Source: Bispira polyomma
Taxonomy: Eukaryota
NCBI GenBank assembly: GCA_965649765.1
Contig: OZ287756.1
Span: 17,856,001-17,920,000, forward strand
Length of the DNA: 64,000 bases
Direction of reading: 5' to 3'
In this document: positions 31,668 to 63,620 of the stretch, in pieces
Layout of the letters: each line of letters opens with the position of its first letter
Position numbering within the stretch: position 1 is the stretch's first letter
Program-made: the position numbers and the translations under genes
The notes under the pieces: model-generated
Database searches by the model: none
The model's input: the letters and a program-made list of their open reading frames with translations, nothing else
Told to the model about the DNA's origin: nothing

Positions 31668-32133
31668 AGCAAAATTCTGCATCGAACATCCGAGAAAGTT
31701 CTCCCCATAAATCACTTTCTTACATTCTTAGCGAATAAATTTGTGACAATTACATACAATGTATTATTTCTGTCCTCTAACCCCAGGGTATAAGTTTTCT
31801 AATCTGTTCCATTTCTGCATATTTTCCGAGCAAGATGTTCTAAAACTCATGAAATCCTTTCCTATTAAATATTGTAAACTAGATCCTATCCCAGTGGTTT
31901 TGCTAAATCACTGCCTCGACATTCTACTCACACCCATAACTAATATATTAAATTTTTCTCATCGGGTTGGTATTTTTCGCACCTGTTTCAAGACTGCGAA
32001 TGTAAAAAACCAGGGCTTGATAAGAACCAGCTCAAAAACTACAGACCAGTGTCAAACTTGAGCTTTGTCTCTAAAGTTATCGAGAAAGTTGTAGCGCAAC
32101 ACATTTCTGACAACTTCAACAGACACATTTCCT
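31668..32133 (+). mobile_element. L2-like LINE ORF2 fragment (pre-RT region)
   Basis: KILHRTSEKVLP...KYCKLDPIPVVLLNHCLDILLTPITNILNFS...FKTANV, frameshift, then KPGLDKNQLKNYRPVSNLSFVSKVIEKVVAQ. Confidence 0.88.
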
Positions 32134-32860
32134 CGGTAACAGGCCAAGCGGTCAGAGGTCAAGAAGACAAGGTAAATATACGACAGAATGCTGTAAAACA
32201 TTTATTTATTAAAACTAAGTGTTAGACTACTACTACTATGTACAAAGTGACTTAAGGTCACTGTAATTAAGTTAAGTTACCAAATGATAGGTGACTTAAA
32301 GGCAGGTGATAAATGTTTTATTTAGCATTAAACATAAATTTTGGTAAGGTCACCTTAGAACAAGTATTTAAAGTCCAGGTTATAAAATTTACTCAGCCCT
32401 TGGCAGTTGCATGAGCAAAGGTGACCTTAAATCAAAAGTTTAATATAGTTAAATTTACTTTGAAGTTGTTACTGTACTGTAACATTTAATCTAGTTAAAT
32501 TTACTTTGAAGTTGTTACTGTACTGTAACGTTTAATAGTATATTACTGACTAATTACAGTAAACACAGTAAACTATAGTTAAGTTTACTTTCCAGTCGTT
32601 ACTGTACTGTAACGTCTAAAGCACATTACTAACTAGTTACAGTATAAGAAACACAGTTTATCACAAGTTAAAGTAATTACAGTATAGCAATTAAAAGTAA
32701 AAGCATAAGTTGCTAATTTGAATTAAGAAGTTGTTATGGAAACGTCACACTACTATTACTTACAGGTACTATTATGTAACTGTCTGACAGAATAACTGAA
32801 AAGAGATGTAGTAAAGCTAGTAATTGACTAGAATCAGCCAAACCCCAAAATAAGTAGGAG

Positions 32861-33851
32861 TTAGGAAATGACAGAGGCAGATAGATGACGCCTAAAGGAA
32901 TCAGCCACTTGGTGGCCAGCATCAACAGTATCTGTGACATACCTCCACACGGAATCCGAAGTCCCGATACCATGATTTTGTATGTTTTGTATGCTAACGT
33001 TATGATTAAAAGCAAAAGTGGCACCTGAACGACGGAAAGCATGGAAGGTAAGCCCAGAGTTTTCCAACTTTAGTCTAAGTAACACGGTTTTTAGGTGGCG
33101 ACACACTCTGGTGTCAGTTAGAGGCACCCATTTGTGATTGACTTTAATTTGAAACAATGGTGAGTTAGGTCCCGATGGAGTGAGGGCCAGAATGGCCTCC
33201 AGTGACCCAACTGGGCGTAATAGTGAGCCCGGTAACCGAGGAATGGTCAACAGTTTGATCTGCTTGTTGTTTTGCATTGTTTTGGACCACTTAATCAACA
33301 GAACGGCTTTATCCGGGTGGGTCATGACATCTGCCCTAGCTAAATGCTTTAGCGCAGAGAATTGAGCAGTTGAATGTGGTACAAGATTGGATAGCCTGAG
33401 AAATGAAAAATAGCTGAGCAGATAAACTGCTTTAAAAACAAGCCCCATGTAAGTTGTATTCGAAACTTTCACAATGCTTTGCAGAGTGGGGATATCTATT
33501 ACCTTTTTTAGTTTAACATTGAGGGGGGCAGCCATTTGCACAGCCTTTTGGTAATAGGCAACGCGAGGGTCACTGAAAGCCTGTATCTGAACATTATGCA
33601 CAATGATTCGGCTCTGATGGCCGACAAATAGTTAGCCATGTGTGCTGGTTTGACAGGGTTAAATTGTAAAACTTCCAAAAAACATAGAAGATCAGGCACA
33701 GTCACCTGATTTAAAGGCCGATCCATGAAAGCAGCATAAGCCAGATACACCCTGTACATAGCTCTGTAAGATCTAGCAGTGGACCTACAGAAGGCTAAGT
33801 GCAGTTTCCTCACAGCATTGTCATACAACAGTTTTTGAAGTGGATTTTTGT
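32861..33851 (-). pseudogene. Tyrosine recombinase (YR), one frameshift near 33605
   Basis: FLRLSNL (catalytic R), KWSKT, HAFRRSGAT (HxxR), NHG, VWRY (catalytic Y); N-terminal helical domain in 33508-33828. Confidence 0.9.
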
Positions 33852-33891
33852 CTGAAACACAATAAAAACTACAAGGAAGACAGTGACAATT

Positions 33892-36373
33892 TTATATGTC
33901 TTCATTGAGTAGCAAGTGATGTTCAGTAACAGGACACCACTGAACTGGTCCTACAAGAGAATGCAAACGGACATGGTTAGCAGTGGACTCCTTCCAGCGC
34001 GAGAGCAGGTCAGCAGTTGTATTGTGGTCACCTAATATATGAATAACTTTTAGTTCTACATCAAAATGGCTAGCTAACATAAATATGTTACATGAATACA
34101 GGGCAAGGATACTATCCCTTGTCCTGCCATTAGTAAGGACACTGACCACAGCTTGATTGTCACATTTTATGAGGACCTTCTGACCCTGCCACTGGTTACC
34201 CCATAATTTCATTGCCACAAAAATGTTTAACATCTCCAAAGAAGCAATATTTTGATGCTGTAATCGAGCAAGTATAGGCAACGTGTACACCTTTTGTCCA
34301 TAGACCCCTCCCATACCTGTCAGACAAGCGTCCAGTTCTATGAGGGCAGTTATGGGGTTATGGTGGAAAAAAGAGTCACCATTGAATTGTTTCAAAAAAG
34401 TTCTGAACCAGGTCAAATCTTTATGGAAATCCGGAGTAACTTTGAAATGTTTGCTCTTATGATTACTTCTGAGGAGGTGAAGCATTCTATTCAAGAAAAA
34501 TCTTGAGTACTTGACACATTTAGATACATAAAGGAGTGAACCCAGTAAACACTGGAGTTCCCTTTTTGTGCAGTATTTTTTACCTGCCCAACTGTCGCAC
34601 ATGGCATGGATATTTTGTAATTTTTCATCTGGGATGGAGGTGGTTAAATTGACCGTGTCTATGTCGATACCAAGACAAGTTACCCGGGTCGCCGGAGGGA
34701 CCTATTTTTTGTCACTCAAGGTCAAACCTAGTTCAGCCAATAAGGCTTGAAGCCGGTGATAGGTATGGTATATTTTTGACGGAATCGAGCAACAAAGGAG
34801 GTCGTCTATATAATTCGTAATATGGTAGCCTTCCTTGTGCATTATATATCTGATACCATCCGATAACCTCTGGAAAATGGCCGAGCCATGCTTGTACCCG
34901 AAGGGCAACGAACTGTCCACATAGTAACCATCCCAATACAACCCCAACAAGTTTAGTTCTTTTGGATCCATAGGCACATGCCTAAAAGCGCGACTGATGT
35001 CAGCTTTAAAAATCTGAACTTTTGCCCATTTTGATAACTTGTGAGGTTATAGTGTCTATTGACGGATAAGTTAGCATAAATTCTTTGTTCAGATAAGAAG
35101 TGGGACACACAGCTGCATTAACTGAATGGCCTTGAGGCCAGCTGAGATCAATGATCACTCGACGGTTAACTGAGCTTGATTTTTCCCTGGTCATGAAGGG
35201 GGAGGTATGCAATTTTAAAATTGGTGGCACCTCAAAGGGCCCGTACGTGGCACCCAACTGACATTCTCCTTCTAAATAGTGTTTCACGTGAGTCGGATAC
35301 TGAATAGCTGAGGTGTGATTGTTAAGTTCTGACTTAAACTCGTGATCATTCTCACAGTCTAATGGAAACCCATATTTTACAAGCAGGGGGAGTTCCCAGT
35401 CCCAGTAGCCCCTCAAATACTCAGCCCACACGGAGGCATTAAGTTGAGAAGCCACAGGGACCTGGAGTCCCCTATAATTAGGGCGCCCATCCAGTTTAAG
35501 ATGCTTGGGAAGTGTAAACACATCCATTGCCAATAGGTTATTTGATTTGTCTGTAATGGGTTTTCCCCAAGACTCGAGGGGGATAAAGCCAAACTTCCCA
35601 CTGTTTTGTATATCCCACAATTTAAAAGGTGTCGCATTGGTTGGCATCCTTAAGACGTCGTCTTTTATCAGAAGATCTTTGAACTGCCTATGCATACTTG
35701 TCATCAGAATTATTCAACTCTGTTTGTTCAGGTGTTTTTGTACAAGTCTTTACACGTGGGGAAGCCCTCACACAATAGCCCATGTCAGCAACACTCACCC
35801 CCTTTTCGTCGGGTGTTTCTAACACAGCATATCTATTGTGCAGGGGTAATTGGGAAACCTGACACCCACTGCCATTGTTTTCACTTGAGGCAATAAACCC
35901 CTTGCAGGGGGACAATGAAGTACCCACACCAAGAGGTTTCTCTACACGCATTGATTTATTTTTGACACCCCAGGGACAATCAATACTACTTCTTTTGTTC
36001 CGGTGGGTTTTTTGCTTGCTGACGGACTGTCTGGGCGAGTGGACAGTTTTGTTTACATGCTTGTTGTTATACCCCTTGCCAAATGTAACGTCCCTCACTT
36101 TAGTGCAGATTCTTTTTGTGTTTGTGACCAAACAATTTTTTTCTACACTGTTCCCCCCAATTTCGCCCACCACTGAGGCTTTCTCGAGACTAGTGGGAAT
36201 ACACGGTTTCCCTTTCACAACCACGTCTTTATAAGACCTTTTCACATTTCTGTTAAAACATAAAAACTGTTTAAAATACATTTTATCACATAAATTAAAA
36301 TCTTTGAACTCTGAGTTATATACAGTCCTTGAAAACACTTGCTTATCCACTGCATTACTGCAGTGGCTCCCTA
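33892..36373 (-). pseudogene. pol (N-terminal linker, reverse transcriptase, RNase H), disrupted
   Basis: SPFMTREK...RRVIIDLSWP, ADISRAFRH, LPFG, NYIDD, CLGIDID; RNase H motifs LDAC, SLEMLN, CDNQAVV, ADLLSR; stops at about 35688 and 34702, frameshifts near 35625 and 35010. Confidence 0.9.
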
Positions 36374-36380
36374 GTTTTTT
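36347..36380 (-). other. Candidate programmed -1 ribosomal frameshift signal (gag to pol)
   Basis: A_AAA_AAC in the gag frame immediately before TAG, a 7-nt spacer, then the hairpin CCACTGCA-GTAA-TGCAGTGG; the -1 frame is the long downstream ORF. Confidence 0.8.
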
Positions 36381-37383
36381 GCTATCCCCTTTTTTGTACA
36401 CAACTTAGTCTGGTAAGGACCCTCACATGTTTCACAGCAGTGCTTAAACCACTGCCCTGAGGTTCGGTGGCTAGCATTGAACTTACAGTTACCCTCCTGA
36501 AAGAACCAACAGTTTACCCCTGGGGTTTTTGTTTGTGATTTAATTTTGCTACCAGAACTGGCCTTGGAAGCACTGGCTCCATTTGAACTATGAGAAACAT
36601 GGCGTTGGGCATGAGCCCGGCGTATACGGTCAACCTTGTCCGTGTCAGTCCATTTAAGGCGGTCTAGTTCCATATTTGTTAGCAGGATGGCATGAGATGC
36701 CTTAGCTGCATCCCACGAGAAATCGTGTGCGTCATCCATTAAATTTGCCAAATATTCTAACATGGCTTCCCTAACCTCGGGAACCTTTTGCTCTTGTACA
36801 CACCTTATAAACCCAGAAGTAAACTGCACTAGAGACAGGTCGTCATATGTAGGACGTACCTTCTTAGCCCCTGATAATACAAAATTTTGTGGCCAGTCCA
36901 CACTTCTTTTAATAGGGGCCTCAGTACCACCTCTTTGAGATTTGAGTTTACCTCCAGTGAGCTCGTTAAGCTGCTGTAACTGCAGCAGTCGTTGGTCGAC
37001 TTGGGACTGTAAACTTTCATTTGATCGTAGGAAATCTAAGGAAGGTACTACCGCCTCTACTGAACTGACTACATTACTGGCAACACTGTGGCTAACATTA
37101 GTATTAACATTAGAAGTACTACATGCCTTATGGGCGCTGGGTGAGCACAGCGCCGCCTCTGTCACCTGTACACGTTGGTCCATACTTTCGATTTTCTTGT
37201 TGAGTGACCGTAATTGCTGTAGGATTTGTTCAGAGACGGAGTCAGTAATTACCTCAGAAGCAGGGCCAACGGTGGGCACATCATCGTCGACGCTGGCATC
37301 CAGATTAAATCGATATCTCTTCCCTACGGGTCGTTCATGTTTTCCTAAGCAACTACTACACTGAAACTCCTTTTAGAAGGCAT
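36371..37383 (-). CDS. Gag-like ORF1 of the YR retrotransposon, with a 1-nt frameshift 7 codons after the ATG
   Basis: ATG at 37383 (MPSKRSF) is one base out of frame with CSSCLGKHERPVGK, which is open through a coiled-coil region (EQILQQLRSLNKKIESMDQRV), GKLKSQRGG and a Cys/His-rich end (CWFFQEGNC...HCCETC...C) to AKN*. Confidence 0.75.
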
Positions 37384-37509
37384 TATCACACATAAACAAA
37401 TTAAAAGAGGTATAAAAACATAAAATAGGGTAGTAAAGCCCCAATTGTTAAACACTCTTATTGTATGAATTCTTAAAATATAATGATGGCGCTGGTTGGG
37501 CGCCAAAGC

Positions 37510-37549
37510 CTTTTATACTTGTCCCCATGACCCCAGGTGGCCTAATTGG
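37510..37549 (-). promoter_or_regulatory. Putative Pol II promoter of the YR retrotransposon
   Basis: TATAAAAG at 37517-37510, about 130 nt upstream of the gag ATG, and CCAAT at 37549-37545 in a GC-rich patch. Confidence 0.55.
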
Positions 37550-37759
37550 CCCCCGATAGCCTGGTACCAGAACGCCTCGGCGTCAGCCCACCATAACATC
37601 GCTCTCCAGGCCTGTCCTTTCACTGGCCCGTTCGATTCTACTTGGATTTTCCCTCTTTTGGGTAGGACAGAATGGGCCAGTAGTAGGCTCGAACTTATTG
37701 ATATCCCAAATCAATGAACTAATCATGTATCCTCCCTTATGGCCTTGGTCGTCATCAAT

Positions 37760-62739: not shown

Positions 62740-63620
62740 GAAAATCAAATACAATTTAGAAGTGCAAGTGACGAGTCGGCATTATCACGTATTACGACAG
62801 GCAGAAAATAACACTGTGTTTCAGAAATGGAATCAGCAAAGTTCTTTCAAGTTTTGGTTCATTCCACTTCGCGATTTACAAATGAGAAATGGTAACTGGA
62901 ATTTCTTATTACAAATACAAGTAGAGCTCTAGTTCAAACCAGATTTAGTGGATTACTGGGATGCCCAATTACCATTTCTTATCAGATATGGTTTCCCACT
63001 AGATTTTAATGGGCAAAATATATTATTCCACTAGGAACAAAAACACAAATCTAAATTTATGTTTACTGATGATGTTTAAGCCTATCTTAAAGAGTAAGTG
63101 GAATTGGTTGTAATATTAGACCATTTTAATGTCATTCCATTCCAGAATACTGATATTTCACCGTTTATGACTAGGGACAAACCTGGAGCACCTTATAGAA
63201 GACTTAATATAGTCTTTACTTCAATGCAATTTCGTGAATTTAGCCATCAGTATGGACATTTATCCCATTACTCCCTTTATCCTTAAACTTATAACTATAG
63301 ATTCAAATACTGATAAAATCAGACAGTTAGGCAAGGGGTCCTTCCCATATGAAACCTTTTCAATCCCACTTTTAGGCATATTGAGTTAGATCCCAAAGAT
63401 TATGATCTTTTTGGCTTAAAGTTGGATAAATATTTTAAAGACATGTGTCTAACGTTCGGATTTCAGAATGGCAGGGTCATCTTTCAACACATAAGTGATG
63501 TGGTGCATTACGCCATACATCAATGTCACCATGACGTCATCGTCATGATGACGTAATTGGTTTTGGTACTACCACAACTGCAAGAAATTCATATGGAGAG
63601 TTGCATTACAATGGTTCAAT
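62740..63620 (+). mobile_element. Heavily decayed RT relic of a related YR retrotransposon
   Basis: KYNLEVQ...FQKWNQQSSFKFWFIPL, DYWDAQLPFLIRYGFPLDF, ISPFMTRDKPGAPYRR, FRHIELDPKDYDLFGL...LTFGFQNGRVIFQHISD, all colinear with 34800-35700. Confidence 0.85.

Follow-up and report, generated by a model that had tools for sequence, protein, structure and literature searches.

Organisation of the locus and its gag/pol junction

We analysed a 64,000-nucleotide (nt) stretch of the Bispira polyomma genome (contig OZ287756.1, positions 17,856,001 to 17,920,000; hereafter the window), the minus strand of which carries a copy of a tyrosine recombinase (YR) retrotransposon. The copy comprises a terminal repeat (A1), gag, pol (reverse transcriptase and RNase H, RT/RH), YR and a second terminal repeat (B) (Table 1), and its sequence organisation identifies it as specifically Ngaro-like (DIRS order). 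A preliminary description of the window proposed that -1 ribosomal frameshifting at the end of gag yields a Gag-Pol fusion. The cassette on which this proposal was built was recovered base for base: gag ends GCA AAA AAC TAG, placing the slippery heptamer A_AAA_AAC in the gag register, and a 7-nt spacer and a perfect 8-bp stem follow. Our reading, to which we give a probability of roughly 0.88, is that this conserved cassette would act as a programmed -1 signal for a minor Gag-Pol product made beside Gag, and that YR would come from an RNA in which the first half of gag is spliced to the YR exon.

The window site proves little when taken singly, because the fold of its 106-nt context is unremarkable against shuffles (z = -0.84, not significant; hairpin alone, -12.9 kcal/mol). 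It is conservation across relatives that sets the cassette apart from chance. When the window is compared to the distant copy L064, nucleotide homology extends to position 36347, the final base of the stem, and no further. The GNRA tetraloop of the preliminary description is present in the window copy, but GNRA loops occurred in only 7/21 subfamilies of lineages A and B (read by eye, one representative per subfamily), and the loop was rejected as a component of the signal. The -1 frame, described as open for about 230 codons toward RT, is open for 228 codons, but in the window it meets a stop at 35690-35688, before RT is reached.

Conservation of the heptamer across the family

The host genome (1.04 Gb, 75 contigs) was searched at the DNA level and with six gag-protein searches, and three sets of twenty 10-kb stretches were taken. 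The sample consists of top loci and chosen stretches (best 100-150 candidates per search) and is weighted to intact copies. After removal of duplicates and of matches without the C-terminal part of gag, 155 distinct copies in 46 clusters (<85% nucleotide identity) were retained. The clade of the window, hereafter the frameshift clade, accounted for 120 copies in 36 clusters (lineages A, B, C, D and F), and a sister clade, E, for 35 copies in ten clusters, with a gag ~27% identical to that of the window.

AAAAAAC was found at the gag end of 112/120 frameshift-clade copies, representing 35/36 subfamilies. The exact pattern of heptamer, stop, four bases and 8-bp stem had 445 matches in the genome and none for the reversed control. 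Codon usage was compared using one representative per cluster, picked blind to the heptamer. The heptamer Lys codon was AAA in 33/33 representatives and the Asn codon AAC in 31/32, whilst the commonest codon at 27 other conserved two-fold-degenerate gag columns reached 50-86% of rows, and background usage in gag was 69% AAA for Lys and 42% AAC for Asn. Fixation of AAA and AAC amid saturated synonymous sites therefore indicates selection on nucleotides and not on the K-N dipeptide, and judged by these sequence comparisons the cassette is under strong selection. Conservation, on which the preliminary description had made its proposal depend, was thus borne out: heptamer, register, spacer and stem are kept across gag lineages that share 34-87% protein identity (median 44%, cluster representatives).

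At the protein level, gag homologues in other assemblies (ENA) carried K-N no more than 22 residues past the last Cys/His box in 57 of the 63 with a complete last box, and in 55 of these 57 K-N lay at or one residue from the end. A metagenome scan with the gag alignment returned one weak, unrelated-looking locus.

A predicted stem 4-9 nt past the heptamer

In minimum-energy folds, a hairpin began 4-9 nt past the heptamer in 34/35 heptamer-bearing subfamilies. Across the 35 clusters the median folding energy was -16.4 kcal/mol over 45 nt and the median z score -3.2 (25 below -2), and, against windows up to 600 nt away, the stem ranked in the top 5% in 29/35 subfamilies. Pairing was found in 97% of cells across the 21 rows of lineages A and B, compared to 13-54% in slid controls. 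Stem covariation, which the preliminary description had named as a check, was seen as double-sided changes at two pairs in these lineages: the outer pair is C-G in 13 rows and G-C in 7, and the inner pair swaps between U-A and C-G. Lineages C, D and F keep the spacing but have different stem sequences, with G-U pairs in several of them. These unrelated stems are stronger evidence than the covariation within A and B. In some lineages the gag stop lies 6-7 codons further downstream, with heptamer and stem unmoved. Two lineage D copies (L163 and L175) have two interleaved complementary segments 8-60 nt past the heptamer (read by eye), so that a pseudoknot, or else alternative hairpins, may take the place of the simple stem.

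Pol lies in the -1 frame

Among 112 copies, most of them decayed, the median open length after the heptamer was 175 codons in the -1 frame, 21 in frame 0 past the gag stop and 10 in the +1 frame. Pol is intact in five relatives (L062, L064, L065, L073 and L156), in which the -1 frame continues for 844-861 codons through RT/RNase H. The frame relation implied by the preliminary description is therefore the one found in intact copies. An R-x-V-Y-N-S-like motif, defined post hoc once the sequences had been seen, was encoded in the -1 frame of 22/35 subfamilies (frame 0, 3; +1 frame, 4) and preceded any AUG in 13 of them. The junction combines an X_XXY_YYZ heptamer in register, a predicted 3' structure and a downstream -1 open reading frame (ORF) without a conserved start. 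From this combination, -1 frameshifting very probably makes Gag-Pol in the clade of the window.

A sister clade with an in-frame UAG

None of the 35 clade E copies had AAAAAAC at the gag end. Instead, 30/35 had TAG-G, followed by pol in the same frame (915 codons in L222; 1,015 in L224 and L225, with intact repeats). Past this TAG, frame 0 was open for at least 100 codons in 22/30 copies and the other frames in 0/30. Clade E was split from the frameshift clade with 100/100 support in an RT tree of this genome's copies (42 of 46 rows, four short ones dropped). As this tree was rooted at its midpoint only, the direction of the switch in recoding cannot be inferred. No consensus structure was found 3' of the UAG (70 nt, 13 sequences), and a C-A-rich motif recurs 9-12 nt past the stop. 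The simplest reading of this arrangement is that clade E reads through the gag UAG into pol, which we consider likely. Frameshifting, though well supported for the clade of the window, is thus not universal in the group, because in clade E gag and pol are in one frame with a UAG between them.

An example of the clade E arrangement is found at G000:C10:42592080-42602079 (gag stop at 1996). One clade E subfamily has many near-identical young copies, and four clade E gag matches stand in tandem on C8 at 5,583-bp spacing (G000:C8:46521238-46538439).

Predicted splicing of the recombinase

The frame of YR relative to that of RNase H varies among intact copies (0, +1 or -1), and several have a stop that closes the YR frame downstream of the RNase H stop and before a candidate splice acceptor. 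Together these observations exclude one common frameshift into YR. The acceptor is a phase-1 CAG/TAG at a lineage-fixed position just before the conserved start of YR. It was present in 54 of the 56 copies that have this region (four more lack the region), compared to 265/5,040 same-phase background positions. A matching phase-1 donor lies mid-gag just ahead of K-S-x-R-G in 33/36 frameshift-clade clusters, compared to 163/1,370 background windows; it consists of a GGT Gly codon with A on its 3' side and, nearly always, A on its 5' side as well. In clade E, the donor AAG|GTAA occupies one aligned column in 11/11 aligned gags; three long loci were left out of this alignment (one near-duplicate and two with a broken gag). 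Donor and acceptor phases match in both clades, and the predicted intron of the window spans 36951-33852 (-). These features argue for YR probably being made from spliced RNA as a GagN-YR fusion of ~140 Gag residues and the recombinase.

None of the 120 matches listed in the protein search was an annotated GagN-YR fusion, only single-ORF calls of up to 344 residues. Contigs from three runs of unknown kind, compared to an intact relative, had no gag-to-YR joint among the 15/21 joints listed, which speaks neither for nor against splicing.

Alternatively, ribosomes could enter YR through a second -1 frameshift out of RT/RNase H, or start at an AUG belonging to YR itself. A frameshift of this type was proposed in a 2015 review, as quoted in the available text of PMC13003380, and in L161, L169 and L224 YR is indeed -1 to RNase H and overlaps its end. 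However, the frame relation differs between copies and stops intervene before the acceptor, as described above. The first AUG after the acceptor varies between lineages from codon 5 to codon 92 and mostly falls within sequence that is conserved, and donors and acceptors are phase-matched in both clades. We consider this alternative unlikely and retain splicing as the probable source of YR.

Weighing of alternative readings

Several observations weigh against the reading proposed here. All DNA-level evidence comes from one genome, and the heptamer is missing in 8/120 frameshift-clade copies. Gag and pol share one frame in L066, L067/L074, L251 and L252, following a change in the length of the A run. 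For the stem, independent covariation events are few (mainly the A versus B outer pair, plus two inner-pair changes), the count of covarying pairs does not exceed that in shuffles (130/500), 4/8 pairs are invariant, 6/35 stems fall outside the top 5%, and subfamily L147 has no stem. The core of the A and B stems is an invariant dyad that would also be compatible with a DNA-binding or packaging role. For splicing, the acceptor offsets were chosen per lineage after inspection of the data, and the donor pattern is absent from most of lineage D in the region tested (present in 1/4). A lineage with constitutively fused gag-pol was considered for the in-frame copies and rejected, as they are sporadic and their siblings retain the -1 layout.

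Pol could also be made apart from Gag, either on a spliced RNA of its own or because ribosomes initiate internally, or re-initiate, at an AUG further downstream, with the cassette serving some other purpose. In most copies an AUG does occur in the -1 frame, after 10-110 codons, and the linker is poorly conserved (25-48% between lineage A subfamilies). However, the positions of the first AUG are scattered, and none occurs before codon 300-330 in L162 and L164 (codon 330 in L164); the frame is open, with its conserved motif, upstream of the first AUG. No lineage-fixed phase-1 acceptor was found near the conserved start of the Pol domain (best 6/20, 3/12, 3/10 and 3/7), and fixation of the AAA and AAC codons would be left unexplained. 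Separate production of Pol is therefore very unlikely.

A further possibility is that the stem is a DNA dyad, bound by the recombinase or another protein, or an RNA packaging or dimerisation hairpin, and that K-N reflects protein constraint. This would fit the invariant inverted-repeat core of A and B, the 4-nt centre of which varies freely, and the K-N ending of gag homologues. It does not fit the unrelated, G-U-containing stems held by other lineages at the same distance from the heptamer, nor the exclusion of AAG and AAT, both of which a protein constraint would permit. Moreover, in clade E, with pol in frame, neither the heptamer nor a consensus stem was found. We regard such a role, in place of frameshifting, as highly improbable. 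Transcriptional slippage on the A run (one extra A in the RNA) has in its favour a run of 6-8 bases and genomic copies with altered A-run length, but polymerase slippage usually needs longer runs, the run here usually comprises just six A's, with a C invariably following in the tandem-slip register, and the hairpin is conserved at ribosome spacing, so this last explanation is scarcely credible. Programmed frameshifting on the ribosome remains the preferred account of the gag/pol junction.

Classification and state of the window element

Split direct repeats in the order A1-[ORFs]-B1-A2-B2 were found in L063, L064, L066, L156, L159, L164 and L175, and also in sister-clade copies such as L222, L224 and L225. 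Gag, RT/RNase H and tyrosine recombinase follow one another on one strand, intact pol stops ~35 residues past RNase H, and no Pfam match to a methyltransferase was obtained in L064, L156 or L225. The DIRS1-like arrangement does not apply, the repeats being direct, not inverted, and the methyltransferase absent. The label of the preliminary description, a DIRS-order tyrosine-recombinase retrotransposon, is correct as to order and recombinase and is narrowed to Ngaro-like by the split direct repeats and the absence of a methyltransferase. L240 has an additional B-A unit at its 3' end. In L062, L229, L230 and L231, elements of the group are adjacent to or nested in each other within 10 kb, possibly through targeting of one another's repeats or flanks.

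The window copy retains A1 and one B, having lost the A2-B2 tail of complete relatives, and breaks in gag, pol and YR make it a dead relic. The gag reading frame is disrupted within its initial few codons, and pol carries two stops (35690-35688 and 34704-34702) as well as a break of frame close to 35014. Pfam recovered RT and RNase H, whilst matches to the integrase family were weak and below the cut-off; the H-x-x-R and Tyr motifs are visible in the recombinase of L064. The gag-like ORF, with an N-terminal Cys/His motif and two C-terminal Cys/His boxes, matched no Pfam family above the cut-off and is called gag because of its synteny.

Table 1 Features of the Ngaro-like element in the window (positions within the 64,000-nt stretch).
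Feature	Position	Strand	Basis and remarks
Ngaro-like tyrosine-recombinase retrotransposon, A1-gag-RT/RH-YR-B	32126..37593	-	5,468 bp; 96% identity to copy L061 across 37593-32126
A1 terminal repeat	37445..37593	-	Sequence and homology to A repeats of L064; inner end approximate
TATA box in A1	37517-37511	-	Sequence
gag-like ORF	36371..37383	-	ATG at 37383; ends ...A-K-N-stop; open frame of 333 codons
Predicted phase-1 splice donor, mid-gag	36945..36955	-	Exon end 36952; intron GT from 36951
Slippery heptamer A_AAA_AAC	36374..36380	-	Sequence, gag register
7-nt spacer	36367..36373	-	Sequence; opens with gag stop TAG (36373-36371)
8-bp hairpin with 4-nt loop, predicted frameshift stimulator	36347..36366	-	Folding, covariation
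R-x-V-Y-N-S peptide motif	36312..36329	-	-1 frame; upstream of first in-frame AUG
pol (variable linker, RT, RNase H; no methyltransferase)	33892..36374	-	-1 frame; homology to intact relatives
Predicted 3' splice site	33852..33891	-	Pyrimidine-rich tract and CAG; intron end 33852; phase 1 to YR frame
Tyrosine recombinase (YR) exon	32861..33851	-	PF00589 below cut-off; frame break near 33560 in window copy
B terminal repeat, AT-rich	32126..32840	-	End homologous to both L064 B repeats; inner end approximate

Adjoining the 3' end of the element, fragments resembling a LINE-type reverse transcriptase were read from the translation at 31747-32225 (+), into which the element may have inserted. Elsewhere in the window, a second, distant stretch resembling pol (28% to that of L064) occurs at 62747-63538 (+), and a related element is represented by a recombinase fragment at 10547-10935 (-).

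Proposed expression of the element and its significance

In the proposed model, ribosomes decoding A_AAA_AAC would pause at the hairpin, whereupon the two tRNAs would slip back one base, bypass the adjacent gag stop and read on through ~850 pol codons. Most ribosomes would terminate at the gag stop, which would set the ratio of Gag to Gag-Pol; the modest 8-9-bp hairpin suggests a low frameshift efficiency. In clade E, the shift would be replaced by an in-frame UAG that is probably read through, and in both clades the recombinase would be translated from a spliced RNA in which the YR exon follows the first half of gag. It is plausible, on balance, that Ngaro elements run a full retrovirus-style programme from one promoter, with Gag translated from full-length RNA, Gag-Pol made by recoding and a GagN-recombinase by splicing.

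How the second and third genes of tyrosine-recombinase retrotransposons are translated has so far been guessed from frame overlaps. The present analysis offers exact, testable signals: a 34-nt frameshift cassette, the clade E readthrough junction, and a donor-acceptor pair that predicts a fusion protein. If the model is true, gag-pol recoding extends to a retroelement order without protease or DDE integrase, the guess of a frameshifted recombinase is corrected, at least in these clades, and annotators are shown the real proteins of these elements. In that case, bringing the recombinase into the particle or to its target would fall to the Gag half of the fusion. In Cafeteria Ngaro elements, ORF1 governs target choice, according to the available text of PMC8547959, and a GagN-recombinase could explain this control.

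Poulter and Butler 2015 and Goodwin and Poulter 2004 may also have proposed a frameshift at the gag/pol junction. The idea of frameshifting in Ngaro is in any case not new, having been proposed and left unproven. The portion of PMC13003380 at hand quotes Poulter and Butler 2015 as placing the Ngaro YR ORF in the -1 frame, overlapping RT/RH, and as regarding programmed frameshifts as its probable means of expression, whereas YR looks spliced here. This qualifies the novelty that the preliminary description allowed for; no defined signal was found in the literature searched. A keyword search brought up no DIRS-order element with a described slippery site, stimulator, readthrough or splice. The accessible portions of PMC3783388, PMC6681497, PMC3266345, PMC7192593 and PMC9341512 contain nothing on mechanism, and those of PMC5009743 do not mention DIRS or Ngaro. 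PMC3783388, in its accessible portion, remarks that YR may be either in frame or frameshifted in fungal Ngaro elements, in keeping with the variable YR frame observed here. Frameshifting as such is a familiar mechanism; for this group it had been guessed at but, in the literature found, not defined. Less expected are the sister clade with probable readthrough and the prediction that Gag and the recombinase are fused by splicing.

Comparison with known systems

Published sources compared in this section are represented by parts of their texts. Ngaro-like elements are described as having the structure A1-ORFs-B1-A2-B2, the genes gag, RT-RH and YR, and no methyltransferase (PMC8547959, PMC9210276, PMC13465315). 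The elements analysed here share the gene order, split direct repeats, tyrosine recombinase and absence of a methyltransferase, and differ in that an SGNH-hydrolase ORF was not seen.

A_AAA_AAC with a 6-9-nt spacer is used by mouse mammary tumour virus (MMTV; 7-nt spacer), human T-lymphotropic virus (HTLV), bovine leukaemia virus (BLV) and astroviruses (PMC3835772), in agreement with the preliminary description, which had named it as the MMTV gag-pro slippery site, and it is among the shiftiest heptamers (PMC5009743). The heptamer, its spacing and the 3' RNA structure (predicted here) are common to the MMTV gag-pro, HTLV/BLV and astrovirus signals and to the present cassette. In contrast to MMTV, with its pseudoknot, lineages A, B and F have a short simple hairpin as the predicted stimulator; a pseudoknot is possible only in D. 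In contrast to all four, the gag stop directly follows the heptamer, and neither protease nor DDE integrase is encoded.

Clade E resembles the gag-UAG-pol readthrough of the gammaretrovirus murine leukaemia virus (MuLV) in its single UAG-G and in having gag and pol in frame (PMC5009743, PMC3835772). As for differences, no consensus 3' structure was found in clade E, and a C-A-rich motif recurs 9-12 nt past the UAG. The proposed switch between -1 frameshifting and UAG readthrough in these sister clades has a parallel in the contrast of MMTV-type with MuLV-type retroviruses.

Retroviral env and foamy-virus pol are expressed through subgenomic splicing. The predicted expression of YR is similar in that a 3' gene would be translated from a singly spliced RNA from which pol has been removed, and different in that the donor lies mid-gag, so that the predicted product is a GagN-recombinase fusion.

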